Assembly (NCBI GenBank): GCA_041657385.1
Contig: JBBABZ010000003.1
Location: forward strand, 8,820 to 72,819
DNA length: 64,000 nt
Source: Minisyncoccota bacterium
GTDB taxonomy: Bacteria; Patescibacteriota; Minisyncoccia; Minisyncoccales; JAQTVQ01
Direction: 5' to 3'
The position numbers and the translations under genes are program-made. Below the pieces are notes generated by a model that did no database searches, was not told where the DNA came from, and saw nothing but the letters and a program-made list of their open reading frames with translations. Below are positions 37,414 through 63,021 of the stretch, one piece after another (position 1 is the stretch's first letter; each line of letters starts with the position of its first letter).

Positions 37414-37424
37414 ATCTTTTTCAA

Positions 37425-43602: not shown

Positions 43603-43763
43603 GGCTAAAATATAATATAAATCGAAGCCGATAGGCTTCGCCAAAAAATTGAAATAAAGTCGAAAAAGAGCTATCTTGAATAAAAATATAGCTTATTTAT
43701 CTTTGATTAAATTAGCCTAAAAATCAGAAAGGAGCGGCGTTGATGATTTAACAAAACAAAAAC

Positions 43764-45215: not shown

Positions 45216-45218
45216 AAT

Positions 45219-46499
45219 ATGGTTGACAGTGAACAAAAGATTAAGTGTCCTAAATGTGGAGAATCAATTTCAATTGATGATGTTCTAACGCACCAAATTG
45301 AAGAAAAAATTAAAAAGGATTTTGAGGTAACTCAAAAAATAAAAGAGGGAGAATTAGCTCAAAAATCAGAAGATTTAAAAAAACAGGCTGCGGAAATTGC
45401 CGAGAACAAAAAAGATATTGGTTCAATGGTGGCAAAACAAGTAGCCGAACAGATGGGGAAAGAAAGACTGGGGCTTTTTAAAGAAGCGAGAACGGAGGCG
45501 GAAAAAGAACAGAGCGCAAAAACCGTGCTTTTAGAAGAACAATTGAAGAGCAAGGATGAGAAATTGGCACAGGCAACAAAGAATGAAGTGGAGTTACGCA
45601 AAGACAAGATAAAGCTAGAGGAAGATAAGCAGGTATTTGAATTGGAAAAAATACGTCAATTGGAAGAATCAAAGAAGGCAATTATTGAAGAAGCAAACAA
45701 GAAAGCAACAGAAGAGCAACAATATGTTATTGCTCAACTGAAAAAACAGCTTACGGATGCAACAAAAGCCAAAGATGATTTGGCACGTAAACTCGAACAG
45801 GGTTCGCAACAAACACAAGGCGAGGTTTTGGAATTAGAGCTTGAAGAGATTTTGAAAACGGAATTTTCACAAGATGAAATAATCCCCGTACCCAAAGGAG
45901 TAAAGGGCGCTGATGTAATTCATAAAATCATAGATCGTTCCGGCCGTTTATGCGGGCAGATTGTTTGGGAATCGAAAAAGACAAAAGCGTGGAGTGAAGG
46001 CTGGATTCAAAAGCTTAAAGACGACCAAAGACTTATAAAGGCGGATGTGGCGGTAATTGTCTCAATAATATTGCCCGAAGGTGTAAAGGGTTTTGCCCTT
46101 AGAGATGGTGTTTTTGTTTGTGATGTAAAACTGGCAATCAATCTTGCCTCATTATTAAGATATGATTTGCTAAAAGTAGCCGAAGCAAACAGAGCATTGG
46201 CTGGGAAAGAAGAGAAAAAAGACGTGGTTTATGCATATGTAAATAGTACTGAATTTAAACAAAGAATCCAAGCCATTGCGGAAGCGTTTATTGAAATGAA
46301 GAACGATATAGATAAGGAGAAAAGATCATATCAAGCCATTTGGGCAAAGAGAGAAAAACAGGTGCAGCGAGTTATAGACAATACATTTGGAATTTATGGA
46401 GACCTAAAAGGGTTAACTGGTGGAACAATACAAGAAATTAAAATGTTGGAATTAGATGCTGGTGAAATTAGAGTAAATGAAGATGAAAAAAATATTTAA
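45219..46499 (+). CDS. DUF2130-like protein (N-terminal CPKCG zinc ribbon, long coiled coil, C-terminal globular domain) embedded in type I R-M locus
   Basis: KCPKCGESISIDD at the N-terminus, ~200 aa of K/E-rich heptads, and a conserved C-terminal domain. Sits between hsdM and hsdS. Confidence 0.55.
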   Translation: MVDSEQKIKCPKCGESISIDDVLTHQIEEKIKKDFEVTQKIKEGELAQKSEDLKKQAAEIAENKKDIGSMVAKQVAEQMGKERLGLFKEARTEAEKEQSAKTVLLEEQLKSKDEKLAQATKNEVELRKDKIKLEEDKQVFELEKIRQLEESKKAIIEEANKKATEEQQYVIAQLKKQLTDATKAKDDLARKLEQGSQQTQGEVLELELEEILKTEFSQDEIIPVPKGVKGADVIHKIIDRSGRLCGQIVWESKKTKAWSEGWIQKLKDDQRLIKADVAVIVSIILPEGVKGFALRDGVFVCDVKLAINLASLLRYDLLKVAEANRALAGKEEKKDVVYAYVNSTEFKQRIQAIAEAFIEMKNDIDKEKRSYQAIWAKREKQVQRVIDNTFGIYGDLKGLTGGTIQEIKMLELDAGEIRVNEDEKNI

Positions 46500-46517
46500 T
46501 TTTAAAAAAGAGTAATT

Positions 46518-48410: not shown

Positions 48411-48411
48411 T

Positions 48412-49608
48412 ATGGATAAGAAGAACAAAACTAACTGGCAAATAAAAAAACTTGGCGAGGTTTGTGATTTTGAGGGCGGTTCGCAACCGCCTAAAGTTAA
48501 TTTTATTCACGAACCAAGAAAAGGTTATGTGCGCTTTTTACAAATAAGAGATTTTGGAAGCGATAAACACATTACATATATCCCAGACTCGAAGAAAAAT
48601 AGACACTGCACAGAGGATGATATTTTACTTGGTAGATACGGAGCTTCCGTTGGAAAAATATTGATCAATAAAAAGGGAGCATATAATGTAGCTGTAATGA
48701 AAACATTGCCCAAATACGATCTTTTAGATAAAAAGTATTTCTATTTTTATTTAATTTCAGATGAGTTTCAAAAGCGTTTAAGCAAGGTGGCGGCTAGGTC
48801 AGCACAAGCAGGATTTAGTAAAGATGATATTTATGACTTTCCAGTTGTAACGCCGCCCCTCCCTGAACAACGCCGTATTGTGAAAATTTTGGATGAGGTT
48901 TTCGAGAAGACGGCGAAGGCGAAAGAAAATGCGCAAAAAAATCTGCAAAATGCCAAAGAGCTTTTTGAATCGTATTTGCAGAGTGTTTTTGCTCCTCCTT
49001 CGCTAAAGTTAAGAGCGGACAAGGAACCATCGGGAACGAATTGGAAGGAAAAAAAATTGGGAGAAATCGCATCTTTTTCGCAGGGAATACAAGTTGGGTT
49101 AGAAAAACATTTGACGGAGCCAAAAAAAGATTATGTTAGATTTATCAGGATTGTCGATTACACTCAGGACACAGAAGATATCAGATATATTCCAAATCCT
49201 GGAGATAAATATTTTGTTAATGAGAATGATATCGTAATGGTCCGGTATGGCACACCTGGTTTAATCGGGAGAGGAAAAGCGGGTGTAATTGCCAATAATC
49301 TATTCAAGATAACAATAGATAAAAATTATTTGTTGAACGATTATTTATGTTTTTACCTATCTCAAAAAAATATACAAATTTATTTAAGTACCCGAGGTTC
49401 TGCTACTATGCCTGCATTAAATTTTGGGCAGCTTAAAACAGTAGTTATCAATTTTCCATCATTATCCGAGCAAAAAGCGATTGTTGCCAAACTTGATGCA
49501 CTTTCTACCGAAACTAAAAAATTGGAGGCGATTTATAAACAAAAATTAGCGGATTTAGATGAGCTGAAAAAGTCAGTTCTTAAACGTGCCTTTATTGGTG
49601 ATTTATAA
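48412..49608 (+). CDS. hsdS: type I restriction-modification system specificity subunit (HsdS)
   Basis: Two target-recognition domains separated by conserved coiled-coil regions, repeated at the C-terminus (LDEVFEKTAKAKENAQKNLQNAKELFESYLQ). ATG 48412 abuts the OLD gene stop. Confidence 0.85.
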   Translation: MDKKNKTNWQIKKLGEVCDFEGGSQPPKVNFIHEPRKGYVRFLQIRDFGSDKHITYIPDSKKNRHCTEDDILLGRYGASVGKILINKKGAYNVAVMKTLPKYDLLDKKYFYFYLISDEFQKRLSKVAARSAQAGFSKDDIYDFPVVTPPLPEQRRIVKILDEVFEKTAKAKENAQKNLQNAKELFESYLQSVFAPPSLKLRADKEPSGTNWKEKKLGEIASFSQGIQVGLEKHLTEPKKDYVRFIRIVDYTQDTEDIRYIPNPGDKYFVNENDIVMVRYGTPGLIGRGKAGVIANNLFKITIDKNYLLNDYLCFYLSQKNIQIYLSTRGSATMPALNFGQLKTVVINFPSLSEQKAIVAKLDALSTETKKLEAIYKQKLADLDELKKSVLKRAFIGDL

Positions 49609-49620
49609 TAAACTACATTT

Positions 49621-52011
49621 ATGAACGAATCAGAAACACGAGCCGAATATATTGACCCGAAACTTAAAGCGAGCGGATGGGGCGAAGTTGAGGGATCAAA
49701 AGTCCATCGCGAATTTCGTATTACCGAAGGTAAAATTCAAGCTGGCGGAATGCGGGGCAAGCCGGAAATTGCCGACTATATTTTGGTTTATAAAAACCGT
49801 AAAATTGGCGTGATCGAAGCCAAAGCCGAAAACTTGGAAGCCACTGAAGGTGTAGCGCAAGCCAAAGCGTATGCGCAAAAATTGCAGATTGATTATACTT
49901 ACGCCACCAACGGCAAAGAGATTTACGAAATATCTATGAAAACCGGGCGAGAAGGGATTATCGCCGATTTTCCAACTCCTGATGAATTGTGGAATAAGAC
50001 ATATTCTGACCAAAACGAATGGAAAGAAAAGTTTGCGAGCGTGCCAAACGAGGGCGAATACGGCAAGCGCTATTATCAAGAAATCGCCATCAATAATATT
50101 CTAAACGCTGTAGCGGAAGAAAAAAGCAGAATTCTTTTAACTATGGCAACCGGTACCGGAAAAACTGCTGTAGCTTTTCAGGTCGCCTGGAAACTTTTTC
50201 AAACTCGCTGGAATTTGAAACGCGATGGCGCCCGCCGACCGAGAATTTTATTTTTAGCTGACAGGAATATTTTAGCCGATCAAGCGTTCAACGCTTTTTC
50301 CGCTTTTGATAAAGATGCACTTGTCCGCATTAATCCGTTGGATATTCGCAAAAAGGGCGGAGTCCCGATGAGCGGCAGCGTTTATTTCACAATTTTTCAA
50401 ACTTTTATGAGCGGCCAGGGCGGCAGCCCGTATTTCGGCGATTATCCGGCCGACTTTTTTGATTTTATTATAATTGACGAGTGCCATCGCGGCGGAGCCA
50501 ACGATGAAAGCAATTGGCGGGGGATTTTGGAATATTTTTCACCGGCGGTCCAGCTTGGTCTGACTGCCACGCCAAAACGGGCAGATAATATTGATACTTA
50601 TAAGTATTTTGGCGAACCGGTTTATATTTATTCGCTTAAAGAGGGCGTAAATGATGGTTTTTTAACGCCTTTCAAGGTTAAACGGATCAAAACTACGCTT
50701 GATGATTATGTTTATACTTCCGACGATCAAATCATTGAAGGAGAAGTAGAAGAAGGGAAAATTTATGAAGAACCAGATTTCAATCGGATTATTGTTATTA
50801 AAGAACGCGAAGCCAAAAGAGTTCGCGTATTATTGGACGAAATAAATCAAAACGAAAAGACGATTATATTTTGCGCGACCCAAGATCATGCGTTGGCCGT
50901 TCGTGATTTGGTGAATCAAATGAAGAAAAGCAAAGACCCGAATTATTGCGTGCGCGTAACGGCAAATGATGGCGCCCGAGGCGATCAGTTTTTACGTGAA
51001 TTTCAAGATAACGAAAAAACGATCCCGACAATTCTTACAACATCGCAAAAACTTTCTACTGGCGTTGATGCTCGTAATATTAGAAATATTGTTTTAATGC
51101 GACCGGTAAATTCAATGATTGAGTTCAAACAGATCATTGGCCGCGGAACCAGGCTTTTTGATGGAAAGGAATACTTCACGATTTATGATTTTGTGGATGC
51201 CTATAAACATTTCTCCGATCCGGAATGGGATGGCGAACCGGTCGACGAAATATGCTCAAAGTGCGGGAAAGAACCTTGTATTTGTGAAAAGGAACCTCCT
51301 CAAATATGTTCAATATGCGGGAAAGAACCATGTGAATGCGAAAAACCGCCTAAGCTTTGCCCAATATGCGGCAAACTGCCATGCGAATGTAAAAATCAAC
51401 CAAAGAAAAAATTGAAAATAAAACTGCGTGATGGTAAGGAGCGCGAGATAAAGCATATGATCTCCACTTCTTTTTGGGGTGCCGATGGCAAGCCGATCTC
51501 TATTCAAGAGTTTATGGACAATATGTTTGGTACTATGCCGGAATTTTTCAAAAGCGAAGAAGAGCTGAGAAAGATTTGGTCGAATCCGACAACGCGGAAA
51601 GCGTTTTTAGAAAAAATTGCCGAAGCTGGTTATGGCAAAGACGAATTGGAAACGCTGCAAAAAATGATTGATGCCGAGCAAAGCGATTTGTTTGATGTTT
51701 TGTCATACATATCATTCTTAACTCAGCCAATTTCAAGAGTGCAGCGAGTAGAACAAGCAAAAGACAACATTTTTGAAGGCTTAGAAGAAAAACAAAAAGA
51801 ATTTTTAGATTTTGTTTTATCAAAATACGAACAAAAAGGCGTTGAGGAGCTTGATGAAGAAAAATTACCGATCTTACTAAATTTAAAATATCATTCGCCA
51901 GCTGATGCAATAAACATTCTCGGTGATGTAGAAAACATTCGATCAATTTTCTTCGCCTTTCAGAAAAATTTGTATGCCAAAACGAGCAAGGAGTACGCGC
52001 AGAAGAATTGA
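49621..52011 (+). CDS. hsdR: type I restriction enzyme R subunit (HsdR) with Cys-rich tandem-repeat insertion
   Basis: N-terminal PD-(D/E)xK domain (ADYILVY...VIEAKA) and SF2 helicase motifs (ATGTGKT, DECHR). Near the C-terminus, three ~36-39-nt tandem repeats encode C-x2-CGK-x-PC-x-CE (51243-51400). Confidence 0.9.
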   Translation: MNESETRAEYIDPKLKASGWGEVEGSKVHREFRITEGKIQAGGMRGKPEIADYILVYKNRKIGVIEAKAENLEATEGVAQAKAYAQKLQIDYTYATNGKEIYEISMKTGREGIIADFPTPDELWNKTYSDQNEWKEKFASVPNEGEYGKRYYQEIAINNILNAVAEEKSRILLTMATGTGKTAVAFQVAWKLFQTRWNLKRDGARRPRILFLADRNILADQAFNAFSAFDKDALVRINPLDIRKKGGVPMSGSVYFTIFQTFMSGQGGSPYFGDYPADFFDFIIIDECHRGGANDESNWRGILEYFSPAVQLGLTATPKRADNIDTYKYFGEPVYIYSLKEGVNDGFLTPFKVKRIKTTLDDYVYTSDDQIIEGEVEEGKIYEEPDFNRIIVIKEREAKRVRVLLDEINQNEKTIIFCATQDHALAVRDLVNQMKKSKDPNYCVRVTANDGARGDQFLREFQDNEKTIPTILTTSQKLSTGVDARNIRNIVLMRPVNSMIEFKQIIGRGTRLFDGKEYFTIYDFVDAYKHFSDPEWDGEPVDEICSKCGKEPCICEKEPPQICSICGKEPCECEKPPKLCPICGKLPCECKNQPKKKLKIKLRDGKEREIKHMISTSFWGADGKPISIQEFMDNMFGTMPEFFKSEEELRKIWSNPTTRKAFLEKIAEAGYGKDELETLQKMIDAEQSDLFDVLSYISFLTQPISRVQRVEQAKDNIFEGLEEKQKEFLDFVLSKYEQKGVEELDEEKLPILLNLKYHSPADAINILGDVENIRSIFFAFQKNLYAKTSKEYAQKN

Positions 52012-52128
52012 AGAAATATTATTGGGATAGTTCCTTTAAGGCAATATCCGAAGTAGGGATTTAAAAAGTAGTCTTCGACAAATCTTCTAAAGGTTTCAAA
52101 AAATAATGATTTATTTAATAAGCAAAAC

Positions 52129-52965
52129 ATGGAATTAAGAGACAGGATGCAAGAATTTAATCAACGCTGGAATGTTGAAAATAATGAATCGTATGGTGAG
52201 AGTTTTGCGAAATTTAAGATTCGCATTCTTAATATCTTAAAAAATATAGATAACCAAGTTACGGAAGGCAGCGTAACTTTATTTTGCCAATTGTATGGCA
52301 TACCAGAAAGTTGGGGATCTTATTCAGGGAGACGCAGATTGAGTGCGAACATTATCAATAGGATTAATGGTGAGAACAATGAAGTGGAGTTTTACAGGTT
52401 GCTAGAGGTTATTTTTTCTTTAGATATCCGTAGCCTCGATGGATATGGCGGATGGGAAGAATATAATAAGCGAAGCATCTATAAGGAAGTATGCCAAGCC
52501 ATTGGATTTTCAGATGTGAACCTTGCCACAACCATGACAGAAAAAGGGGAAATAATTTTTTATCCTAAGGGAGAAGAATTGTTAGATAACGAGCTTGTCA
52601 ATTTTGTTTTAAGCTTTTTATCGGTGGAGAGTAACAAACATTTTGAAGAAGCCCTTGGTTTTTATGGCGCCAAAAAATGGGTTAAATGTGCCGAGAGCTT
52701 ACGCCGTTCCCTTGAACAATATTTGCGAAAAAAGTTCAATAATAATATCGGCCTCAAGACGAATATCGTTGAAATCGGGAAAAAGTTAAAGAACCAAAAT
52801 TCGCCAGCGCAGATTAGAAGTATTGTTTCTATAATCTTTGGCCATCTTGATCAGTTTTTTAACGATAATAGCAAACACAATGATGGCGAGTTGGAAGAAT
52901 CTGATGCTGAATTTTTGATTTACCAAACAGCATTACTTATGCGTTATATCGAGAAATATCTCTAA
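52129..52965 (+). CDS. hypothetical protein
   Basis: 278 aa, alpha-helical, no motif recognised. Confidence 0.5.
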   Translation: MELRDRMQEFNQRWNVENNESYGESFAKFKIRILNILKNIDNQVTEGSVTLFCQLYGIPESWGSYSGRRRLSANIINRINGENNEVEFYRLLEVIFSLDIRSLDGYGGWEEYNKRSIYKEVCQAIGFSDVNLATTMTEKGEIIFYPKGEELLDNELVNFVLSFLSVESNKHFEEALGFYGAKKWVKCAESLRRSLEQYLRKKFNNNIGLKTNIVEIGKKLKNQNSPAQIRSIVSIIFGHLDQFFNDNSKHNDGELEESDAEFLIYQTALLMRYIEKYL

Positions 52966-52987
52966 AATCTTAACAGGAACAAATTAC

Positions 52988-53485
52988 GTGAATTTTTTAG
53001 CCGAAGATCTATTAAAAATTAAAACATTGGATCACTCTAAAATTCAAGCGTGGATCAAGCGGTATTTTTATGATTGTGGCTACTATTCCCGAACGGAAAA
53101 GGAAGTTTGGCGGGATAGAAAAGGCCGGATCGATGTGTTCGCCCAAAAGGGGAGCTATACGGTCGGGATCGAAGTCGATCACAGCTCGATCCGGCTGAAC
53201 TCAATTGAAAAGTTGAACGCACTTAATCCGTCTTTGGCGGTTTTTGTTTTAAAGGGGAAAGTTTTCAATTGGGAAAAAACTTATTCTCGTTTCAAATTTT
53301 TAAAGGTGAAATCTTTGATAATCCATTTGCAGACGAAAAGGTACAAGTGGGTCTGTCCCCAAGAGAAAAATTCTTGTAAAATAGACGAAAGTGTGGATAT
53401 TTACAATAAAAAAATACTTTCTAAAATGTGCCAAAATACAGATTCAGAAAATTTGAAAAAAGCCAAACGCCCCTCAAATTCATAA
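52988..53485 (+). CDS. hypothetical protein, possible restriction-endonuclease-like fold
   Basis: 165 aa. GRIDVF...YTVGIEVD could be a D...E-x-D/K nuclease core. Weak. Confidence 0.3.
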   Translation: MNFLAEDLLKIKTLDHSKIQAWIKRYFYDCGYYSRTEKEVWRDRKGRIDVFAQKGSYTVGIEVDHSSIRLNSIEKLNALNPSLAVFVLKGKVFNWEKTYSRFKFLKVKSLIIHLQTKRYKWVCPQEKNSCKIDESVDIYNKKILSKMCQNTDSENLKKAKRPSNS

Positions 53486-54282
53486 TCGGGCCTAAAGATA
53501 TTTTAATACTCCAAGACCTTGCCGCCTATAAGTTTTTAGATTCAAAACATATATTAGCCTTGCATCCGGAAATAAAGGAAAGAAGCCTTCAATCAAGGCT
53601 TCATTTGCTTTTCCACGGAGGATTGGTGGAGCGGCCGCCAAGCCAATTCACATACTTCCAAAAGGCGGCCCATATCGTTTACAGCCTGACCAAGAAAGGA
53701 GCGGAGCTGGTTTCTCAAGATATGGGAGTTTCCGATCAAGTAAAACAGCCCAAAAATATGGGCGTGTCTTTTTTACAGCACTCGCTGATGATCTCCAATT
53801 TCAAAACAATTCTGGAATTGGCCTTAAAAGAAAACGGCCAGTCAAAACTTTCTTTTTGGAGCGAGCCGAAAACCATTGATGTGATCTATTCCGGCGGCGA
53901 AAGGCTGCCAATCGCACCGGACGCGTTTTTCACGATAGAGGATAAGGATTATTTGATGCATTTTTTCCTTGAAGTGGACCGCTCAACGATGGCGCTTGAG
54001 CGGATGGTAAAGAAATTCAAAGGATACTGGGATTGGCGCGCCGAAGGCGGACACAAGCGAAAGCTGAAGATTTCCAATTTCCGCGTGCTGACGGTGGCCT
54101 TAACCGAAGACCGCAAAGAGAATATAAGAAAGATCGCTAGAAAAGCGGATGACAATCAAACCGGCAGCGAAATGTTCTGGTTTGCCTGTGAAAAAGCGTA
54201 TAATTTAGAAAACACCGGAAAGATATTGGATCCCATTTGGAAAACTTCGAAAAATGAAAATTTACACCATATATTGGAATAA
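53428..54282 (+). CDS. replication-relaxation family protein (plasmid/ICE-associated)
   Basis: PIAPDAFFTIEDKDYLMHFFLEVDRSTM matches the Replic_Relax core. The true start is probably internal (N-terminal region overlaps the previous ORF). Confidence 0.55.
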   Translation: MPKYRFRKFEKSQTPLKFIIGPKDILILQDLAAYKFLDSKHILALHPEIKERSLQSRLHLLFHGGLVERPPSQFTYFQKAAHIVYSLTKKGAELVSQDMGVSDQVKQPKNMGVSFLQHSLMISNFKTILELALKENGQSKLSFWSEPKTIDVIYSGGERLPIAPDAFFTIEDKDYLMHFFLEVDRSTMALERMVKKFKGYWDWRAEGGHKRKLKISNFRVLTVALTEDRKENIRKIARKADDNQTGSEMFWFACEKAYNLENTGKILDPIWKTSKNENLHHILE

Positions 54283-54330
54283 AGGTCGGCCAGGTTTTAA
54301 ATGTAATATTTTAACGCAACAATAAAACTT

Positions 54331-54837
54331 ATGTTTGCAAGAATAAAACAGGAAGCGATCTTGGAGAGTTGGGGAACTTTGGTCGGATCTGTCAGCGGCC
54401 GGAGCGAGGAATTTTTTAGAAAGACGGGAGAAGCCATAAATAGCTATAAAGTGCCATTTCTTGTAATGGACTATAAGGAAGTTGCTCCCAGTTTTGAAAA
54501 GGGGCTTTTCGGCAAAAAGCGTCCGGCCATCATCGTAACAAACAGAAAAATGCCTGAATATAAGATGTTTATCATGTGCAGGGATTATGGAACGCAACTT
54601 TCGATTTCTTGGTATCTTCTTTCCGCCAGCCCGTTGATGTACGCGATAACGACATTTGCGCAGACCTTAGCGCAAACAAAGAAGCCCATGGATGTATTTC
54701 AACTTGAAGAGCTTTCGTGCTGGACGGCAACCGTCCATCACGCGACAACCGCCGCCTCAAAAGAGATCGCCGAATCGGTTGGCTTCGATTTCTCCAAGGT
54801 TGATCAAAAATCAAGAGGTTTTTTAAATATTTCTTAA
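54331..54837 (+). CDS. hypothetical protein upstream of TraD/VirD4-like ATPase
   Basis: 168 aa. Its stop abuts the ATPase start. Confidence 0.5.
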   Translation: MFARIKQEAILESWGTLVGSVSGRSEEFFRKTGEAINSYKVPFLVMDYKEVAPSFEKGLFGKKRPAIIVTNRKMPEYKMFIMCRDYGTQLSISWYLLSASPLMYAITTFAQTLAQTKKPMDVFQLEELSCWTATVHHATTAASKEIAESVGFDFSKVDQKSRGFLNIS

Positions 54838-54838
54838 A

Positions 54839-56383
54839 ATGATTCCAGGCTGGTTGCGCCAATTCTTGGAAAAAGCCAAAGCGGTTTTGAAAAAGATTTG
54901 GGCCATCTTGAATAAGGATATTTTCGTCAAACCGCGTCCGTCAAAACCGGATGCGGCGAATGAAGTGCCTCCAGAAAGGAGGCTGGATTTGGGCTACGCT
55001 TGGGGCGTTGACGAGAAAACGAATATGGAAGGCTTTACCCAGAGAAAAGCGATCTATACGGATTATCGAAAGACGCATTTTTATATAATTGGCGCAACCG
55101 GCACCGGCAAGACCAAGTTTTTGGAGTCGCTCATTATCCAGGACCTCGTGAATGGCGAAGGCTTTGCGGTTATAGATCCGCACGGCGATCTGACCGAGAA
55201 TATCAAGGGTTGGCTGTATCACAAAACGCAAAAAGATTTTCAAAAGGATATTATTTTGATCGAGCCGACTAATCTTGAAAAGACCGTTAGTTTCAACCCC
55301 TTGGAGCCGATACCGGGCATCTCAAGCTCGGAGATCGCCAGCGAGCTGGTGGAAGTGTTTAGAAAGATTTGGATCGATTCCTGGGGCGAGCGGATGGCCG
55401 ATATAATGCGCAACTCTTTGATCGCGCTGGTGGAAAACGGCCTGACCTTGGCCGAATTGCCGCCGTTTTTGACAAATACCGCTTTCCGTAGAAAAGTGAT
55501 GCGTAATGTGAAGAATCCAACCTGCTTGGAACGGCTCGAATATTTCAATTCTTTGCCGCCTTCCACTTGGCGGGAATGGATCGAATCGACCTTGAATAAA
55601 GTAGATGCTTTTCTTTCGGATGCGAGGATCCGTGATATATTCTCTTCGCCTAAAAGTTCTTTCAACCTTCGGGAAATTATGGACAGCGGGAAAATCCTGC
55701 TGGTCAATCTAAGCCGGGGAAGACTGAAAGGCGGAGCCAATCTTTTGGGAGCGCTTCTGGTCAGCAAAATCCAGATGGCCGCTTTTTCCCGTGCCGATAT
55801 GCCGCAAACCAGCCGAAAGCAGTTTTATCTTTACATCGACGAGTTTCAAAATTTTGCCACGGAAAGTTTTGTCGAGATGTTAAGCGAGGCGCGGAAATAC
55901 AAACTTTCCCTGATAATGGCGCACCAGAATTTAAGCCAGCTCCCAAGAACTTTGAAGGATTCTATCCTTGCCAATTGCGGCATTCAAGCCTGTTTTCGCG
56001 TTAATCGTGAAGATGCCCAATTGCTGGCCAAGGAGCTGTTAAGCCCGCTTTACCAGCACCAGCCCGGCTGGGAGCTGAACATCCAGCGCTTGCAGGAACT
56101 GCCGCCGCGGACCTGCTTTGTGGCCAACCGGATGGAAGGCGGGATAATTTATATCTCCACGCCGGACGTGCCTAATCCTTGGGAGCTTATCTGGGGCGAA
56201 GAAGACGGCGAATGGAAGACTTATGACGAGGAAACTTTTCGCAGATTTATGGATGTAATGGGTTACGGTGCCTCTTATTTGCGGGATAGGGCCGAAGTAG
56301 AGGAGGAATATCTGCAAAGGTATACCGAGCTCGTTAAAAGCAAGGAAGGAGAGAATTTCAGGGAAAGAAAAGGCCAAATTTGA
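54839..56383 (+). CDS. TraD/TraG/VirD4-family coupling-protein-like P-loop ATPase (island copy)
   Basis: Walker A GATGTGKT, IDPHGD and Walker B FYLYIDEFQNFAT, the same signature as 9175..11037. Confidence 0.7.
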   Translation: MIPGWLRQFLEKAKAVLKKIWAILNKDIFVKPRPSKPDAANEVPPERRLDLGYAWGVDEKTNMEGFTQRKAIYTDYRKTHFYIIGATGTGKTKFLESLIIQDLVNGEGFAVIDPHGDLTENIKGWLYHKTQKDFQKDIILIEPTNLEKTVSFNPLEPIPGISSSEIASELVEVFRKIWIDSWGERMADIMRNSLIALVENGLTLAELPPFLTNTAFRRKVMRNVKNPTCLERLEYFNSLPPSTWREWIESTLNKVDAFLSDARIRDIFSSPKSSFNLREIMDSGKILLVNLSRGRLKGGANLLGALLVSKIQMAAFSRADMPQTSRKQFYLYIDEFQNFATESFVEMLSEARKYKLSLIMAHQNLSQLPRTLKDSILANCGIQACFRVNREDAQLLAKELLSPLYQHQPGWELNIQRLQELPPRTCFVANRMEGGIIYISTPDVPNPWELIWGEEDGEWKTYDEETFRRFMDVMGYGASYLRDRAEVEEEYLQRYTELVKSKEGENFRERKGQI

Positions 56384-56430
56384 AGAAATCCTTTACTTCT
56401 TTACTGTTTGTATAGTAAGAATAAGGCAAT

Positions 56431-57180
56431 ATGGATTTTATAGCTTCAAACTTAATAACTCCGGCCATAATTATTTCTGCGGCCGCCTATCTTACAAGAT
56501 TTTACGGTAAGGTTATCTCAGATCGAAAACCATTTTCTGACGATCGAGATTGGGAGATCGAATTTTCCGGAATTCTTTTTTTTATAACCATGCTCCTCTC
56601 TGTTGTGCCTGGGATTTTTAGCGCTTTAAAAATCGGTTGGCTTTTCCCTTTTGAGTGCCCTATAATTATGATTGTCTTTTTTTCGACGCTTTGGTTATCG
56701 ATTAGTATAGATATTCTTATTGATAAAAACACATATAAAAAGATATACGATATCAAAATTCCATTTATCCAAAATTTATTTAAATCAGCTAAAGATGACA
56801 GGACAAGATTAAAAGAACCCAACGCAAAATTTTGGACCATTAACGAATATGTGATACTTTGGTTTTTCCCATTCTTATATACATATATTTTGACCATCGA
56901 ATACCAGTCTCAAAATATAGAACGGTTATTCTCCGCAGGGCTCCTCGTTTTTTTAAATTCTATTTTAATAGCACTATTCTACTCACTAAGGAGAAATCGG
57001 CCACGGAAAGCTGATATAATTTTTATAAATAGAGAAAGGTCTCTTTTTGATGTGCTGTTATTAAAGGTAAATAATGATAATGTTCGCATTAAGCAGAAAG
57101 AGAAGGTTTCTATTATTAATAAAGACCAAATTGAGAGGATAGAATTACTTCCGATAAAAGATAATGCTAAAAAATATTAG
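56431..57180 (+). CDS. hypothetical polytopic membrane protein
   Basis: 249 aa, at least 5 hydrophobic helices. Confidence 0.5.
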   Translation: MDFIASNLITPAIIISAAAYLTRFYGKVISDRKPFSDDRDWEIEFSGILFFITMLLSVVPGIFSALKIGWLFPFECPIIMIVFFSTLWLSISIDILIDKNTYKKIYDIKIPFIQNLFKSAKDDRTRLKEPNAKFWTINEYVILWFFPFLYTYILTIEYQSQNIERLFSAGLLVFLNSILIALFYSLRRNRPRKADIIFINRERSLFDVLLLKVNNDNVRIKQKEKVSIINKDQIERIELLPIKDNAKKY

Positions 57181-57201
57181 AATTAATTAAAAAAACGATA
57201 A

Positions 57202-57984
57202 ATGCCAGATAAGATTATCATTTACCCGGAATTTACTATAGAAGAAATGGAGAGCGCTTTGTCTCCTTTTATGTCGAGTAGAACCCATAGCAGAAATATA
57301 GCTTACAGTTTGCAATTTTTGAAATATTGCGAAGAATTGATAAAACAAAAAATTGAGGTTAAATTTGCGATAGATTCTATCTTCTCAAAAGCGATGACCG
57401 TTATAGCATCTTCTGTCATAGAATGTTTGATATTTGATTCTTTAAAGAAAAATGATTGTTGCTTAGAGAAATGGAAAGACTTCCAACCTCCAACAGAGTT
57501 ACCGATTTATAAAGATGATCCAAACAGAAGGGTGAGGATAGTTTATCAAGAAAAAATAGAAGAGCCTCTAGACAAGTTTGTTCCTTTCGGAATGGCTATA
57601 AACTTAGCTATTGAAAATCAAATTATTGATAGTGGGATTAGATCATCGCTCGACAAAGTAAAAAGCGCAAGAGATTTGATACATATCAGAGGCGGCGAGG
57701 ATTTGGATATGAAAAAAATTAATTTAGATTTTTATTTTAAAATTACGCGGCCTACCTTAATAAAGATAATGGAGAAATTAAAACTAAAAAAAGCTATAGA
57801 ACTATTTGAATTGAGCAAAGCATCAGAATCAAAACCAAAAGAGATTGTTAAAAAACCATATTATAAGGGAGCTTCTATGGTTTGGTCTGTATCTAATAAG
57901 AAATGGTATTTAGTTAAAAAAGAAGGGGGGTTGGTTGATTTTCTTGGGGAGGAGAAAGATATTGAATGGCGAATTGTAAAATAA
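57202..57984 (+). CDS. hypothetical protein
   Basis: 260 aa, no motif recognised. Confidence 0.5.
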   Translation: MPDKIIIYPEFTIEEMESALSPFMSSRTHSRNIAYSLQFLKYCEELIKQKIEVKFAIDSIFSKAMTVIASSVIECLIFDSLKKNDCCLEKWKDFQPPTELPIYKDDPNRRVRIVYQEKIEEPLDKFVPFGMAINLAIENQIIDSGIRSSLDKVKSARDLIHIRGGEDLDMKKINLDFYFKITRPTLIKIMEKLKLKKAIELFELSKASESKPKEIVKKPYYKGASMVWSVSNKKWYLVKKEGGLVDFLGEEKDIEWRIVK

Positions 57985-58003
57985 ATATAAGATCAAAAAT
58001 AAA

Positions 58004-58816
58004 ATGCAAATTGATTCACCCGATATCAACGCGTTAATAAAGGATATTTTGCCGATCGAGGCTTCTTTCACCGGAGATCCCGGCCGTCCGGAGTCGGAAC
58101 AGGCTGTGGCGCAAAGCATAGAACGGTGGAGATTAAGCTATTTAAAAGAGCTGGAGGCGAACAATTCCCTTGATGATATCAAAAAATTCAAAGTTTTTAT
58201 CACCAGCCTATTATTAAGGGCCAACAGAGGCGAGGTCGGCGGGAGATTGTATAGGGCTCTTAACGATAGAATAAACGATTTCAAAGATCTGGATAGGAAA
58301 ACCGTCGCAGCCGTTTTAAAAGATGCTGGTTACCGTTTCCAACTTCAAGGCATAGAGACGGTGCTGGATGCCAAAAAATTATTGCTTGATAGGTATCAAG
58401 GCAGCTGGGATGGATATTTTAAAGAAGCAAAAGAAAATTACAGAAATAATTTTCCAGATGACGATTTTTTAAAGATAAAGGGGGTGGGCTTCAAGGTAAG
58501 AGATCTGGCCTCGAGCTGTTTTTTAAAAGAATATTCCGCTAATGATTTTCATGTAGTGGATGTTCTAGTAAGGACAGGTTTGATTTTATACGGATACGGC
58601 AATTTTAATTTTGGAACTAATCCTAATAATAACGAAAACTATTTATTTTTAAGGAATTTGATAATCAATATCTCCGAGCAAACACCTTATTCCCCAGGAG
58701 AAATTGATAGAATTTTTTGGCATTTCGGTCGGGCAGTTTGCAAAAGTAAGCCGTTGTGTGAAAAATGCTTCATTAAAAATATATGTTTGACCTATAGAAA
58801 TATAAAAGAGATTTGA
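58004..58816 (+). CDS. HhH-GPD superfamily DNA glycosylase with C-terminal 4-Cys (FeS-type) cluster, endonuclease III/MutY-like
   Basis: HhH-GPD signature LKIKGVGFKVRDLASSCFL...FHVVDVLVRTG (Lys + Asp). C-terminal C-x5-C-x2-C-x5-C (CKSKPLCEKCFIKNIC). Confidence 0.65.
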   Translation: MQIDSPDINALIKDILPIEASFTGDPGRPESEQAVAQSIERWRLSYLKELEANNSLDDIKKFKVFITSLLLRANRGEVGGRLYRALNDRINDFKDLDRKTVAAVLKDAGYRFQLQGIETVLDAKKLLLDRYQGSWDGYFKEAKENYRNNFPDDDFLKIKGVGFKVRDLASSCFLKEYSANDFHVVDVLVRTGLILYGYGNFNFGTNPNNNENYLFLRNLIINISEQTPYSPGEIDRIFWHFGRAVCKSKPLCEKCFIKNICLTYRNIKEI

Positions 58817-58842
58817 TAGGAAACTAAAAATTACAATATTTT

Positions 58843-59364
58843 ATGGCAAAACTTTTTACGGATGGAAATAAACACAACGAACTTGCTGATGAAGTTATCA
58901 ATGCATCTACGAAAGCTCTTTCATATTTTTTTGAAGAGTGCCAGGAAGCGATTAGAACGAAAGATATAAGCGCAGTTGAGCTGTATCTTTTTTATCTTTG
59001 CCAGACGTGGTTTTTGTTAAAAAGTCATATTTTAGAGATGGGCGCAGACCAAAACGACCAAATGGTATTATTCGGAACAATAATTCATAAATTTTGCAAC
59101 AGAGCTGCCTCCTTAACATTTTCTAAGAACTTAGCGGCGGAAAATAATAATTTAGATTTTTGGGGTCAGGAATTAAAGAAAAATTTGATTTTTTATCAAC
59201 AAATAGCAAATGAGGGGGGAGTGGCTGAATTAATGCAGGTTGCTTATAATAAGATTATTAAGTCTGATGATCAAGATTTTCAATCGGCAACAGGCAAAGC
59301 GTTTTTAGCATCCGCATACATTGCCTCTGTTCATATCGAAGAAAAATTAGAAGAACTAATGTAG
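58843..59364 (+). CDS. hypothetical protein
   Basis: 173 aa, helical. Confidence 0.45.
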   Translation: MAKLFTDGNKHNELADEVINASTKALSYFFEECQEAIRTKDISAVELYLFYLCQTWFLLKSHILEMGADQNDQMVLFGTIIHKFCNRAASLTFSKNLAAENNNLDFWGQELKKNLIFYQQIANEGGVAELMQVAYNKIIKSDDQDFQSATGKAFLASAYIASVHIEEKLEELM

Positions 59365-59390
59365 AGAAGCATTTTTTATCTATAAAAATT

Positions 59391-59654
59391 ATGGCTAAAA
59401 AGACTCAAAAACTTTCTAATCTTAGTCCATTCGCATTCCAGAGGGAGCTTTATGCATCTGATGGTATAAACATTATAAGGACAATTCCGACTAAGGGCGG
59501 AAAGGCTCCCTTCATCGCTTATCTTAAAATTGGTTATGGGAAAGAGATTGAAGTCGATTATTCGATTGACGATGTCGCCCAAGTTTTATCTTCCGGATAT
59601 GAAATTACGAAAGAAGATTATGACAAATCTGACGGCGAAGTTAGGAATAGATAG
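59391..59654 (+). CDS. hypothetical protein
   Basis: 87 aa. Confidence 0.4.
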   Translation: MAKKTQKLSNLSPFAFQRELYASDGINIIRTIPTKGGKAPFIAYLKIGYGKEIEVDYSIDDVAQVLSSGYEITKEDYDKSDGEVRNR

Positions 59655-59700
59655 TTTCCCGCGGTATGATAACCTTTATTTTTTAAAAGAAAGTTAAGCT

Positions 59701-60237
59701 ATGGATTTTCCTAAGGAGCTACGACCAGCAAATAAAATGGAACTTCGGCTTTCGGATGGCATAGTAGTAGCCTTGCCAGTGGCTTATCCAAAGTTTTTAG
59801 CTTGGAAGGGACCATCTGTTGTTTTTGATTATGGAAACAAGCCCATAATTAATTACAAAGAGGAAGCGTGTTTTGCTGAGCTTGCAGTTCTTCGCCTTTT
59901 ACTTGATCAGGGATGGGACGGAGTGTGGGTTGAAAGTTACGGGGGCACTCATTATTTGCGAAGTATGCCTCAAGCATGGAATTTGCAATCGGAACATATA
60001 TTGATCCCGCAAGACAAAGAATGTTTACTGCAAAAGATATGGAAAGTAGCCAAGACGACGGCTTGTTTCGATGTTTTTGCATGGCACGATGACCAGTTAG
60101 TATTTTTTGAGGCTAAAAGGACAGGAAAAGATAAGCTTACTTCTCCTCAGATAAGATTTATAGAAGGAGCCTTGGCGTGTGGGATATCGCCGGAATCGCT
60201 CATTATTGTTGAGTGGGAAGATATTTCTTCGAGTTAA
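59701..60237 (+). CDS. VRR-NUC / PD-(D/E)xK-type nuclease domain protein
   Basis: FDVFAWHDDQLVFFEAKRTGKDKLTSPQIRFIEGALACG matches the VRR-NUC core (D ... E-A-K ... Q). Confidence 0.55.
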   Translation: MDFPKELRPANKMELRLSDGIVVALPVAYPKFLAWKGPSVVFDYGNKPIINYKEEACFAELAVLRLLLDQGWDGVWVESYGGTHYLRSMPQAWNLQSEHILIPQDKECLLQKIWKVAKTTACFDVFAWHDDQLVFFEAKRTGKDKLTSPQIRFIEGALACGISPESLIIVEWEDISSS

Positions 60238-60239
60238 AT

Positions 60240-60780
60240 TTCTCCTTATAGGCTATTCGGGCGGTCGTCGTTGGTTTTAAGTAATCAGCCGCCGCCGGTA
60301 GGCCTTGCTCTCTTTGACGATAGGAAAAGTGTGTTTTAAAGGTCCCGCCAAAGCGGGATTTTTAAAAGCCGGACGGCGGCGGCTGATTAGTATCCTGAGC
60401 TGGAAATTTTCGGAAAGGCTTTTGCGATAGAGTAAAAGACTTTCGGGAAAAGCGGACCCGCAAAAAACTATAGGAACCGGCCGCCGGAAAATCAAATGTC
60501 TCCGCGTCAGGTGTCATTTGATAGCGAAGCGGTTTATGGCGGCGGTTCCGTTAAATGGTTTTTGGCGGGGGAGCGGTTTCCGGCGGCCCCTGCCTGCTTT
60601 CTTGGAGTCTTGTCACTGGCCTTGGTCAGTTCATCGCGTGATTATGGCTCTATCCATCACATACCTCTGTCCAGGCGCTGTTTTGGCTTGGAGTTACCTC
60701 TTACTTAGGCATTGCTTCCAAAACAGCGCCGTTGACTACGGCAGAACCGTCCGGCGTTCGGATTGGGCCGCTTTCGATAG
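60240..60780. other. GC-rich noncoding region with multiple long perfect stem-loops (candidate structured RNA or oriT/ori/att region)
   Basis: 17-bp stem TAATCAGCCGCCGCCGG ... CCGGCGGCGGCTGATTA; GGAACCGGCCGCC ... GGCGGCGGTTCC enclosing ATCAAATG...CATTTGAT; 13-bp stem GGCGCTGTTTTGG ... CCAAAACAGCGCC. No long ORF. Confidence 0.5.
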
Positions 60781-60782
60781 CT

Positions 60783-60872
60783 AAAAAGTCTGCGTTCTTC
60801 ATTTCTCTGCGTGTTACCTTTACTCTGCGTTCTTAGAACGCAGAGTCAACGCAGAGAGAACGCAGACTTTTT
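60783..60872. repeat. nested palindrome (AAAAAGTCTGCGTTC ... GAACGCAGACTTTTT with inner CTCTGCGTTC-TTA-GAACGCAGAG)
   Basis: Perfect 15-bp outer and 10-bp inner inverted repeats centred at 60833-60835. CTCTGCG/CGCAGAG occurs four times. Confidence 0.8.
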
Positions 60873-60888
60873 AGCGAGCCAACGCATA

Positions 60889-61021
60889 CCTTTTTACCCC
60901 CACCTGCGGCTAAAATGCGTTGGCTACGGCCCAATCCGAGCGGACCTGCCCGAGCAGGGCCGCGGTCTGCGAGGAGGACTGGGTTTTAGCAAAAATACAG
61001 GCTGACGAGCAATAGTCGGGG
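60889..61021. repeat. ~133-bp inverted repeat (right copy), partner of 43467..43602; overlaps 3' extension of recombinase 2
   Basis: ~90% identical to the reverse complement of 43467..43602. Confidence 0.8.
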
Positions 61022-62529
61022 ATGGCAAGACTAAGAATTATTGATAAAATAGGTCCTAGCTTCGTTGTAGATATACTCATTTCAGAAAACGCCAATTTTT
61101 TGGCCGACAATGCCCACGGTTTTTGAAGCGAAATAGACGGTTTTTGGCCGACAATGCGGAAGTCCGAGCCGATTTTTTTGAGGAAGTTTTGTTTTTCCTC
61201 CAAATTTTCACTTTCCGCGATGGAATTGGCTTGAAATGCCTCTAAAATCCATTCTTTGAAGAGTCCGAGCCGAACATTTCCCTTCCGTCCAAAATTTTCC
61301 AGCTCCTCGTTAATTTCAACCTTGCGGTTGAGAAGTTTTTGTTTTTTGGCGGCGTATTCTTCGCGGCTGATCGTTTGGTCTATGTAAGCGTCCAAAAGTC
61401 GGTTTAATTTCGCGTTCACTGTTTTTAGTTCCGTTTTTAAATTTTGGGCGGAATCGTTGGCGGTAGTGGAAAATTTCTTGCGATCATTTTCCCATCGTTT
61501 GAGAAAGTTATTTTTCCATTCCGCGTTTAAAGAAACTTTTTGAAAAAGTTTATTCAGCTGTTCCGATAGATTTTTTTCGCCGATATATTTTTGGTGGCAA
61601 ACGCGGTCTTTCTTGGTACAGCGGTAATAGGTGTATGATTTGCCGGAAGGTTTGACCCTTGTTTCGGCGGTGATCTGGCGGCCGCACTCGCCGCATTTGA
61701 ACACGCCGCGGAAAGCGTAATGTTTCAAACTCTTTGCCTGCGGTTTGCCTCGTTCTCGCATAACGCGTTGAACTTTTTCAAAAAGTTGTTTGGAAATGAT
61801 CGGCTCGTGATTGCCTTGATATATTTCGCCTTTGAATTTAAACAAGCCGTAATAAAACGGATTTTTTAGCATTGTTTGGATTTTGGAAACGGCGATGGCT
61901 TTTCCTTTTCTTTGTCCGGCTAAGCCAATGGAAAAAGAAAGTTTTTGCAAATCTTCCAAAGTATATTTTCCCGTGGCGTAAGCTTCAAAAACTTTCTTGA
62001 CCGCTTCGGCGCGCTGTGTGTCTTTGACAATGGTGTGATGGCGCAGTTCGTTTAGATAGCCGATAGGGGCGTAGGCCGGATAATCGCCGTTTCGCAGTTT
62101 TTGGCGCAATCCGCGCTTGATGTTCTCGCTCAAATTGTCGATGTAATACTTTGACTGGCCGAAAGCGATATTTAACATAAACTTTCCCTGCGGGGTTGCG
62201 TCAAACCAAAAGGTGGGGAATTTTAAGCCGCCAATCTTGCCAGTGTCCACGAGATAAATAATCTTTCCGCCGTCAACGCTATTACGCGCCAGCCTGTCCG
62301 GGTGCCAGCTTAAAATTCCAAAAGACCCGCCCGCTTCTATTTTGGCGATCATTTGGTTGAATATGGGACGGCCTGGAACCTTGGCGGTTTTCGATTCAAT
62401 AAACTCATCGGCGATTTCCAATCCTTCTTTTAAAGCAAATTCTTTTAGCTCCGTTATCTGGGCTTCAATGCTTAGGACTTGGCGTTCTTCTTCGTCCGTG
62501 GATTTTCGAGCGTATAAAAAATATTTCAT
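60910..62529 (-). CDS. large serine recombinase (second copy) with C-terminal read-through extension into the inverted-repeat element
   Basis: MKYFLYARKSTDEEERQVLSIEAQ start chosen at 62529 (the ORF-track N-terminal extension is probably spurious). ~80% identical to recombinase 1. Its C-terminus runs ~55 aa past the point where recombinase 1 stops. Confidence 0.85.
   Translation of the reverse strand: MKYFLYARKSTDEEERQVLSIEAQITELKEFALKEGLEIADEFIESKTAKVPGRPIFNQMIAKIEAGGSFGILSWHPDRLARNSVDGGKIIYLVDTGKIGGLKFPTFWFDATPQGKFMLNIAFGQSKYYIDNLSENIKRGLRQKLRNGDYPAYAPIGYLNELRHHTIVKDTQRAEAVKKVFEAYATGKYTLEDLQKLSFSIGLAGQRKGKAIAVSKIQTMLKNPFYYGLFKFKGEIYQGNHEPIISKQLFEKVQRVMRERGKPQAKSLKHYAFRGVFKCGECGRQITAETRVKPSGKSYTYYRCTKKDRVCHQKYIGEKNLSEQLNKLFQKVSLNAEWKNNFLKRWENDRKKFSTTANDSAQNLKTELKTVNAKLNRLLDAYIDQTISREEYAAKKQKLLNRKVEINEELENFGRKGNVRLGLFKEWILEAFQANSIAESENLEEKQNFLKKIGSDFRIVGQKPSISLQKPWALSAKKLAFSEMSISTTKLGPILSIILSLAIPDYCSSACIFAKTQSSSQTAALLGQVRSDWAVANAF
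61075..61165. repeat. inverted repeat arm (~91 bp, 1 mismatch) inside recombinase-2 3' coding region; partner at 62612..62703
   Basis: ctcatttcagaaaacgccaattttttggccgacaatgcccacggtttttgaagcg... is the reverse complement of 62612..62703. Contains an internal direct repeat tttttggccgacaatgc. Confidence 0.85.
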
Positions 62530-62611
62530 ATTCCTTTTAAGGATAAAAATAATTTGAATTTGTGAAAATTTGGAGGAAAAAAATCGGCTTTCGTTTTCGA
62601 TTAACATTTTC

Positions 62612-62703
62612 GGACTTCCACATTGTCGGCCAAAAACCGTCTATTTCGCTTCAAAAACCGTGGGCATTGTCGGCCAAAAAATTGGCGTTTTCTGAAATGA
62701 GCT
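62612..62703. repeat. inverted repeat arm upstream of recombinase-2 start; partner of 61075..61165
   Basis: Reverse complement of 61075..61165. Explains spurious ORF 62562..62750, which encodes the recombinase C-terminal peptide. Confidence 0.85.
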
Positions 62704-63021
62704 GTTTGTATGAAAAAGTTCGGACTTTCTTCCTTGAAGAGAACAGCTAAAAACGGTCAAACTGCTCCGGTTTCTGTCTGGTATTTTTGTTGTATCTTTT
62801 TTGAGTAAAAGGCGCAACTTCTTGCCCCCGACTAAGCTCACTTCGCCCTGTTTTGGAGTACCAATCCAGAGCTTCGCTCGCAGACCGGCAACCGGCTTGG
62901 GAATCGGGCTTGGCACAACGCATTTTAGCCGAAAAGATGGGGGGGAGGGGAGAATTTAAAAATATATCGAAGCCGTAGGCTTCGCGTTAAATTTGAAAAA
63001 ACACTATAAAAAAGGTAAATT

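Follow-up and report, generated by a model that had tools for sequence, protein, structure and literature searches.

A conserved, folded two-domain module forms the non-coding distal end of a mobile cassette in a Patescibacteria genome and may serve its MOB_C mobilisation system

What is a hairpin-rich block of some 640 nt doing between the cargo of a mobile cassette and a serine recombinase gene? The question arises at 60240-60960 of a 64,000-nt stretch (the window) of contig JBBABZ010000003.1, from a genome of the Patescibacteria, or candidate phyla radiation (CPR). The block is the non-coding distal end of E1 (about 41740-61075), a cassette that a large serine recombinase (LSR) has inserted at the 3' terminus of a tRNA-Gly gene. 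It is a conserved, length-preserved module of two domains that occupies the same position in many related cassettes. Its left half, domain 1, accompanies the genes of a MOB_C mobilisation module. The reading favoured here, drawn from sequence comparison and given about an even chance of being right, is that domain 1 would be the cis-acting origin of transfer (oriT) or single-strand origin (sso) of that module, acting as a folded single strand.

By exact search, 60240-60960 contains nine inverted repeats that pair perfectly over 10 bp or more, against a mean of 0.16, with a longest stem of 13 bp, in 200 dinucleotide shuffles:

60780-60798 with 60857-60875: perfect stem of 19 bp
60282-60297 with 60374-60389: perfect stem of 16 bp
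60674-60686 with 60718-60730: perfect stem of 13 bp
60758-60770 with 60927-60939: perfect stem of 13 bp
60479-60490 with 60577-60588: perfect stem of 12 bp
elsewhere within 60240-60960: two perfect stems of 11 bp and two of 10 bp

The 723-nt region also folds far better than chance, with z-scores of -8.8 on the + strand and -11.6 on the - strand. The long perfect stems that an earlier, sequence-only reading had picked out are therefore real; its 13- and 12-bp stems were recovered, but the first stem measures 16 bp and not 17. The structure does not stop at 60876, where that reading had ended it, and runs on to about 60942-61021, overlapping the read-through tail of the open reading frame (ORF) of the adjacent recombinase, LSR2.

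The region had also been described as containing no confined ORF of at least 60 aa. Two ORFs of 70-72 aa in fact lie wholly inside it, at 60277-60495 (- strand) and 60496-60708 (+ strand). Compared across homologues, neither is protein-coding, because variable sites show no codon periodicity (43/94, 43/92 and 44/90; p=0.95) and the homologues differ by indels of 1, 2, 4, 7 and 10 nt, which are not multiples of three and break the frame. A coding role for a recurrent minus-strand open frame was ruled out on the same two grounds.

Scanning metagenomes with a 16-mer of the terminal repeat gave 86 loci. All loci compared are metagenomic assemblies, in which inverted repeats longer than the assembly k-mer can give ambiguous orientation. 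Cassette ends adjoining the terminal repeat are of two types, a promoter-like P-end and a D-end that carries the module described here. The block of ~640 nt recurs with its length kept in 13 other loci, and in 11 of 13 the distance from the cargo stop codon to the distal terminal repeat (X') is 630-680 nt. In L001, the nearest relative, the far end of the island is organised alike (stem 3, outer arms and six-motif palindrome), with compensatory differences throughout. Structure tests were based on a 13-sequence alignment (A3, with domain 1 in columns 61-392) and on 26 distal ends. The A3 consensus fold has 154 pairs, of which 31 show double-sided changes. Strain variants L094-L097 were also screened for covariation and carry zero single-nucleotide polymorphisms in the region, all of theirs falling in the LSR2 coding sequence.

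The features of domain 1 are as follows:

60282-60600, + strand: domain 1, a structured element of ~320 nt with 12 helices, specific to MOB_C nickase cassettes
60282-60297 with 60374-60389, + strand: helix 1, 16 bp and perfect; its span, 60282-60389, holds a small hairpin and a terminator-like hairpin at 60334-60367
60399-60407 with 60577-60585, + strand: helix 5, a long-range helix that encloses helices 6-12

A profile search finds domain 1 in 14 other loci at E values of 1e-81 to 1e-109, and by blastn the left part of the block (60282-60603) matches 15 loci at 74-83% identity. The 12 helices in the consensus of domain 1 comprise 105 pairs; 96.4% of cells are paired, a figure that drops to 42-50% when the partners are slid by 1-3 columns. 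Double-sided changes affect 19 pairs, against 9.6+-1.9 in shuffles, and none of 500 shuffles reaches 19. The first stem of the sequence-only reading, helix 1, is among the covarying helices: double-sided changes occur at 8 of 13 pairs, and in four homologues the helix has been swapped wholesale and compensatorily, from AUCAGCCGCCGCC.../...GGCGGCGGCUGAU to AAGGAGGCCGCCC/GGGCGGCCUCCUU. Helix 5 is found by single-sequence folding, as DNA and as RNA, on the + strand only. Helices 5-7 are invariant in the 13 sequences and hence uninformative on structure. The 12-bp stem 60479-60490/60577-60588 is confined to the window, its 3' arm pairing instead with 60399-60407 in 12 homologues. By alignment, the helices of both domains are kept by compensatory changes, although compensatory helices alone do not separate an RNA from folded single-stranded DNA (ssDNA).

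Upstream of domain 1 in E1 lies a mobilisation module, annotated with Pfam, NCBIfam and PHROGs:

52988-56383, + strand: mobilisation module, consisting of p165, the Replic_Relax/MOB_C nickase (53428-54282), p168 and a VirD4-like type IV coupling protein (T4CP; 54839-56383)

The 284-aa nickase matches Pfam Replic_Relax at E=3.1e-22 (80 bits against a cutoff of 25.3), carries an HxlR-like winged helix-turn-helix (wHTH) at residues 26-95, and in PHROGs matches a phage family annotated as replication initiation by nicking. The Pfam family PF13814 corresponds to the MOB_C relaxase class, or MobC (PMC5357655), and has a PD-(D/E)XK fold (PMC3424549). The MOB_C prototype, TraX, has a wHTH and binds short direct repeats 70-120 bp from the nick site, nic (PMC12857230). 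Five CGG(G)AAA(A) motifs occur in domain 1. The coupling protein gene stands next to the nickase gene, and E1 has no other gene of a type IV secretion system (T4SS).

Replic_Relax is present in every domain-1 locus with enough upstream sequence, accompanied by the T4CP in all except L134. Conversely, domain 1 is present in 10 of the 10 loci for which both the MOB genes and the downstream sequence are available, and it starts ~20-65 nt past the T4CP stop codon in L126, L128, L139 and L144. Both the MOB genes and domain 1 are missing from the small cassettes (1.5-2.5 kb) whose distal ends are short. Searches with nhmmer, by single sequence and by profile, over all loci collected gave no copy of domain 1 outside Replic_Relax cassettes and none near the more distant T4CP genes of L017, L037, L039, L053 and L076. 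No other DNA of these cassettes is as conserved as domain 1, and no other non-coding part of the module is conserved: blastn aligns domain 1 in 10.5 of 16 loci with 79% identity, and the MOB genes in 4-6 loci with ~70%.

These observations favour a cis-acting DNA-processing locus, an origin of transfer that may be combined with a single-strand origin. The nickase would open the excised circle, domain 1 would then work as a folded single strand, and the coupling protein would pass the strand to the secretion channel of a helper. The 60334-60367 element looks like a canonical terminator, a hairpin followed by a U-tract, and lies between both strands of helix 1. Because helix 1 encloses it and yet covaries, both sides of the hairpin must stand on one molecule, an arrangement that ssDNA accommodates naturally and a transcript only awkwardly.

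Several points weigh against a DNA origin. Domain 1 is tied to the MOB module by co-occurrence only, and its repeated motifs are at most candidate relaxase-binding sites. In four domain-1 loci the available upstream sequence, at most 2.8 kb and too short to bear on the association, shows no MOB gene. No resemblance to a characterised oriT or sso emerged; blastn of the region against 72,556 plasmids and 50,697 phage records gave no match, and neither did an invariant 21-mer searched against a collection of viral contigs. The long invariant purine-rich unpaired blocks, the GNNNNA-type loops and the large number of helices would suit an RNA as well. Domain 2 and its repeated half-sites occur in cassettes without a relaxase, and as part of an oriT would need to act in trans. 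The suggestion in the sequence-only reading of an oriT or replication origin is thus best supported for the left half of the block, where the support is associative and no nick site was identified.

The same evidence raises the alternative that a new structured non-coding RNA (ncRNA), made up of domain 1 or of the ~600-nt block as far as the T-tract at 60868-60872, is transcribed from the + strand downstream of the mobilisation or cargo operon. Such an RNA may control transfer, maintain the element or scaffold the relaxosome or recombinase. Twelve helices with significant covariation are what such an RNA would show, as are the invariant A/G-rich unpaired blocks with G-N4-A hexaloops, the terminator-like unit with its T-tract at the 3' end, and a conservation above that of the flanking genes. 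The consensus energy of domain 1 is -196 kcal/mol on the + strand against -165 on the - strand, an advantage of 31-32 kcal/mol, and invariant or near-invariant + strand G.U pairs occur, for example at columns 190-365 (13 of 13 sequences) and 193-230 (12 of 13). The energy difference is explicable by + strand ssDNA as well as by + strand RNA, however, and a strand test corrected for the bias of predicting with G.U allowed is not significant, with 23 G.U against 13 A.C cells at mostly Watson-Crick pairs (p=0.13). That result is a point against both readings. Folded as ssDNA, moreover, domain 1 scores z = -10.1 on the + strand and still -7.2 on the - strand, far beyond chance. No conserved promoter-like block was found 5' of helix 1, where alignment columns 1-60 are unrelated between loci, and the sole promoter-like match in the window is on the - strand and not conserved. 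The terminator-like hairpin inside helix 1 argues against a transcript, and strict linkage to a nickase gene is what a cis-acting DNA site would predict.

Database comparison gave the RNA no relative. Rfam 15 (4227 models), applied to the window at gathering thresholds and to 59600-61600 at E<=1, returned nothing relevant, the only signal being an RsmY-like terminator at 17 bits against a cutoff of 57, and the E<=1 search of 11 homologous loci returned nothing recurrent. The large structured ncRNA that the sequence-only reading had envisaged has strong covariation in its favour and lacks a conserved promoter and a decisive strand asymmetry. Overall, a + strand ncRNA is the main rival, a possible but somewhat unlikely account. 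A more specific version, that domain 1, perhaps with the distal-end core, belongs to an undescribed class of large structured RNAs of CPR LSR cassettes and acts in element mobility in place of a DNA origin, is unlikely; such an RNA may be, for example, a scaffold or specificity factor for the PD-(D/E)XK nickase or for the recombinase.

Among the characterised systems closest to domain 1 are the MOB_C oriTs, those of pAD1 (TraX), pAM373 and CloDF13 (MobC with the coupling protein MobB). CloDF13 pairs its MOB_C relaxase with its own coupling protein. These systems and E1 share the Pfam nickase family with its N-terminal wHTH, a nickase gene beside a dedicated VirD4-like coupling protein gene on an element without other T4SS genes, and a non-coding cis region, in E1 a candidate, beside these genes with large inverted repeats and short repeated motifs; according to reviews, the oriTs of pAD1 and pAM373 contain inverted repeats and the direct repeats bound by TraX number five. 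The differences are equally clear. The region showed no sequence similarity to any plasmid searched, and E1 is chromosomal, integrated by a serine recombinase and resident in a CPR host. Domain 1, a 320-nt multi-helix fold with a long-range helix, is far more elaborate than the described oriTs. The half-sites of domain 2 are also found in relaxase-less cassettes, and for nic there is here a candidate region only.

The second group consists of single-strand origins and ssDNA promoters. The ssoA, ssoU and ssoT origins of rolling-circle plasmids, sso1 of ICEBs1 and Frpo of F are non-coding, strongly folded stretches of 150-400 nt, fixed in strand and orientation, that act as folded ssDNA. Such sequences are linked to a nicking initiator or relaxase, with which the PHROG match of the E1 nickase is in keeping. 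In contrast to them, domain 1 shows no similarity to conserved sso motifs beyond TAGCGA, a hexamer resembling the CS-6 of ssoA origins, which among the aligned loci occurs in the window and L159 only and is not conserved. The third group is RNA. ROOL, GOLLD, HEARO/omega RNA and the IS110 bridge RNA resemble domain 1 in size, helix number, covariation and a mobile-element site near a tRNA and recombinase. They differ in that domain 1 has no Rfam match, no promoter that could be found and a terminator-like hairpin inside helix 1, and is tied to the nickase gene and not to the recombinase.

The right half of the block has a different distribution:

60618-60942: domain 2, the generic distal end of every cassette of the family, whatever the cargo
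60674-60730: stem 3 hairpin, 13 bp and perfect, part of the generic distal-end core
60755-60942: large nested hairpin, formed by a (60755-70) with a' (60927-42) and by b (60877-87) with b' (60915-25) around a C-rich loop of 27 nt
60780-60875: A-tract/palindrome/T-tract unit, with a perfect outer stem of 19 bp, six TCTGCGT half-sites and the centre TTCTTAGAA

Domain 2 has four helices (stem 3, a/a', A5-palindrome-T5 and b/b'), and 16 of their 44 pairs are compensatory among the 26 distal ends. Its consensus energy is symmetric between strands, and it has 21 G.U against 19 A.C cells. Stem 3 is conserved in the 26 ends, with compensatory UA/CG changes at three positions. Both helices of the nested hairpin covary there, for example as GC:14/CG:10 and CG:15/GC:11; their right arms, a' and b', lie in X', and the two hairpins amount to a partial direct copy of the terminal repeat paired with X' itself.

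The nested palindrome with its repeated motif had been noted before, with four copies of the narrower CTCTGCG/CGCAGAG. Six TCTGCGT copies, three on each strand, occur in 60789-60866, and three others in the whole 64 kb; the right-hand copies repeat at an 11-nt period. The palindrome core varies between elements (CTGCGT, CTGCAT, CGTCAT, CGTCCT, CGTCGT, TGTCAT) and is always self-complementary. The A5 and T5 tracts are invariant in the 26 distal ends, and the stem that they enclose covaries. Short D-ends have a second A5-palindrome-T5 unit where long D-ends have domain 1. The 60780-60875 unit is built as CTAAAAAG-stem...stem-CTTTTTAG and sits between the + strand cargo and the - strand LSR2 gene. 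In form it is a bidirectional terminator placed where cargo and recombinase genes converge, a role suggested by form only. In the proposed scheme it would be at least that, parting the cargo operon from the recombinase gene that runs towards it when the element is circular or in tandem. The half-site repeats with their 11-nt period are probably protein-binding sites as well.

The whole distal end, domain 2 included, might instead be a folded, attC-like signal for cassette exchange, or an oriT used in trans by which even small relaxase-less cassettes would be moved, with domain 1 as an add-on. A block of 330-400 nt with fixed architecture and a variable palindrome core ends every cassette, taking up 15-25% of those of 1.5-2.5 kb; cassette-sized contigs bounded by both arms occur, and the 11-nt period of the half-sites would fit such a signal. 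Serine recombinases, however, act on double-stranded sites, and the core at which crossover occurs is in another place. Signs of cassette arrays or shuffling were not seen, and the A-tract/stem/T-tract unit is more simply a bidirectional terminator. An exchange signal is accordingly regarded as rather improbable.

The palindrome could instead be the crossover or attachment site of the neighbouring serine recombinase, as the sequence-only reading had suggested for the region around the central TTA. It lies ~200 nt from the element end beside the recombinase gene, and its half-site repeats resemble protein-binding sites; LSR attachment sites are imperfect palindromes of ~50 bp. The crossover core nevertheless proves to be elsewhere. 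In 12 islands (L001, L010, L013, L014, L018, L031, L038, L060, L061, L069, L071 and L078) a core of 4-6 nt identical to the tRNA 3' terminus is found at the tRNA/element boundary, at the internal joint and at the element/flank boundary. In the window this core is CTCA, at 41737-41740 (the tRNA end), ~43365-43368, 61076-61079 and ~62698-62701. The copy at 61076-61079 is ~240 nt to the right of the TTA centre at 60834, so that the palindrome lies inside the element, and it is absent from the proximal arm. Its core also varies freely among cassettes with near-identical terminal repeats. In L088 homology breaks at window position 62699 (L088 9678), where the LSR2 cargo arm gives way to foreign flank, and L091 starts at the same base. 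The L088 flank rebuilds ...CACCCGCT-CCA, the native tRNA-Gly end, which matches the right end of E2, the element to which LSR2 belongs. The palindrome around TTCTTAGAA is almost certainly not the crossover site.

The order of the window shows why the recombinase beside the block is not part of the same cassette. From the left it holds tRNA-Gly(CCC), LSR1 (- strand) and a type I restriction-modification (R-M) system with DUF2130 and OLD-family nuclease genes, and then p165, Replic_Relax, p168, T4CP, six uncharacterised ORFs, the non-coding block, LSR2 (- strand) and a Tsp45I R-M system. The boundaries are:

41667-43601: left end of E1, with tRNA-Gly(CCC) at 41667-41739 (attL) and LSR1 at 41730-43190 (- strand)
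41735-41828 and 43275-43368: inverted arms of LSR1
43468-43601: X1, proximal repeat of E1
60889-61021, - strand: X', distal terminal inverted repeat of E1, a 92.5% inverted copy of X1
61022-61079: outer spacer of the E1 distal arm with the crossover core CTCA (61076-61079), the E1/E2 joint
61076-62701, - strand: LSR2 module of E2, coding sequence about 61096-62530
61076-61167 and 62610-62701: inverted arms of LSR2, 92 nt, 99% identical

X1 and X' bracket 17.3 kb of cargo, and the block lies ~200 nt inside the right end of E1. The LSR1 and LSR2 modules (41757-43657 and 61096-63001) form a direct repeat at 80% identity. Homologues of the recombinase match only to ~61096, the last 55 codons of LSR2 (to 60910) being non-conserved read-through. 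No tRNA remnant was found where LSR2 should abut a tRNA, and the distal arm of E1 occupies that place. LSR2 is part of E2, a second element that has been inserted in tandem, and not of the cargo of E1. The description of the block as a cargo/recombinase junction was hence right geographically, though the recombinase is that of the tandem element. The empty site is predicted to read ...CACCCGCTCCACGATGTTAC, and the junction of the E1 circle to pass from the spacer (61022-61075) through CTCA into the E1 arm from 41741 onward.

The same architecture extends through the family. All relatives of the adjacent recombinase are in CPR metagenome-assembled genomes. Arms of 75-135 nt bracket the recombinase gene in ~67 of 79 loci with enough flank, with 95-100% identity in most and 74-94% in about a dozen; the recombinases, compared between loci, share only 50-65% identity. 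The final 20-30 codons of the recombinase are encoded by one arm, and the second arm is situated ~30-350 nt upstream of the recombinase start. Although the arms differ from locus to locus (L001-L080), those of one locus match, which implies that homogenisation continues. Almost everywhere, the 3' arm directly adjoins the 3' end of a tRNA gene that converges on it, the tRNA being Gly, Gln, Ser, Ala or Trp according to LSR subfamily. In 22 of 48 scanned loci an inverted copy of the sequence immediately upstream of the inner arm lies 1.3-5.5 kb away at 86-100% identity, and these outer repeats bracket small cargo, mostly defence genes. The cargo seen in L001, L010, L018, L060, L069 and L078 includes an AbiEii-like ATPase with a pPIWI-associated-type nuclease, C5 methylase, a type IIG Eco57I-like enzyme and GmrSD/Mrr_N/Schlafen proteins, some cassettes also carrying an APH kinase or inositol monophosphatase. 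Just inside the proximal repeat, every P-end has a CGAAGCC-N4-GGCTTCG hairpin that is conserved, and after it an AT-rich stretch resembling a promoter (43602-43657 and 62946-63001 in the window, and many P-ends in L098-L183).

These elements resemble LSR tRNA islands of the tycheposon and integrative mobilisable element type, which insert at a tRNA 3' end and restore its terminus, have the recombinase at the edge, and carry defence and R-M cargo with an optional relaxase. They differ in that the recombinase gene and the cargo are here each bracketed by long, mostly near-identical inverted repeats, and in that an E1-type element keeps an inverted intact copy of attP. Between the recombinase module and the cargo the integrated element retains this attP-like joint, whose core includes CCA. 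To our knowledge no serine-recombinase element with such a retained inverted joint has been described, and a literature search on CPR recombinase architecture found no description of an LSR and cargo each bracketed by inverted repeats.

The recombinase frame has no stop codon in its own 3' arm; LSR1 stops inside the antisense tRNA gene (41730-41732), and LSR2, which abuts E1 rather than a tRNA, reads 55 non-conserved codons through X' (60910-61095). How the recombinase ends at its C-terminus is therefore set by the integration context. In L088 the Tsp45I cargo arm of E2 meets the native downstream flank of tRNA-Gly where it would otherwise meet LSR2, with the cargo in the orientation opposite to that in the window. 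This may reflect a real flip-flop inversion between identical arms or the traversal of an unresolved repeat by the assembler. The window differs from L094 at 67 positions and from L095 at 26, all within the LSR2 coding sequence (61326-62149) and none in 12 kb of cargo or the non-coding block, although these contigs, identical elsewhere, come from other samples, a pattern that suggests mosaic recombinase genes or chimeric assembly between paralogues. In L173, at about 900-1080, the 5' coding part of a recombinase gene is joined directly to the terminal-repeat 16-mer, an apparent rearrangement within the family.

Two further observations concern other parts of the window. An RNase P RNA at 36920-37416 scores 103.5 bits against an Rfam cutoff of 100, with insertions of ~99 and ~55 nt relative to the class A model, and is consistent with a divergent CPR RNase P. 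In the 3' part of a type I restriction subunit gene, three copies of a ~43-nt unit stand in tandem at 51248-51395; they recur every 51-54 nt, are 63-81% identical and each encode a CxxC-like C-P-x-C-G-K-x-P-C-x-C segment.

CPR bacteria are tiny, mostly uncultured episymbionts whose gene exchange is poorly understood. The locus reveals a family of tRNA-anchored LSR cassettes, mostly with defence cargo, some of which carry a CloDF13-like nickase, a coupling protein and a highly conserved folded non-coding element. If this element is an RNA, it would represent a new large structured RNA family. If it is the oriT or single-strand origin favoured here, it would provide a testable handle on conjugative mobilisation in CPR bacteria and would be a first cis site for a MOB_C system outside the plasmids of Firmicutes and Proteobacteria. 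Either way, the 13- and 26-sequence alignments define models with which more copies can be found.

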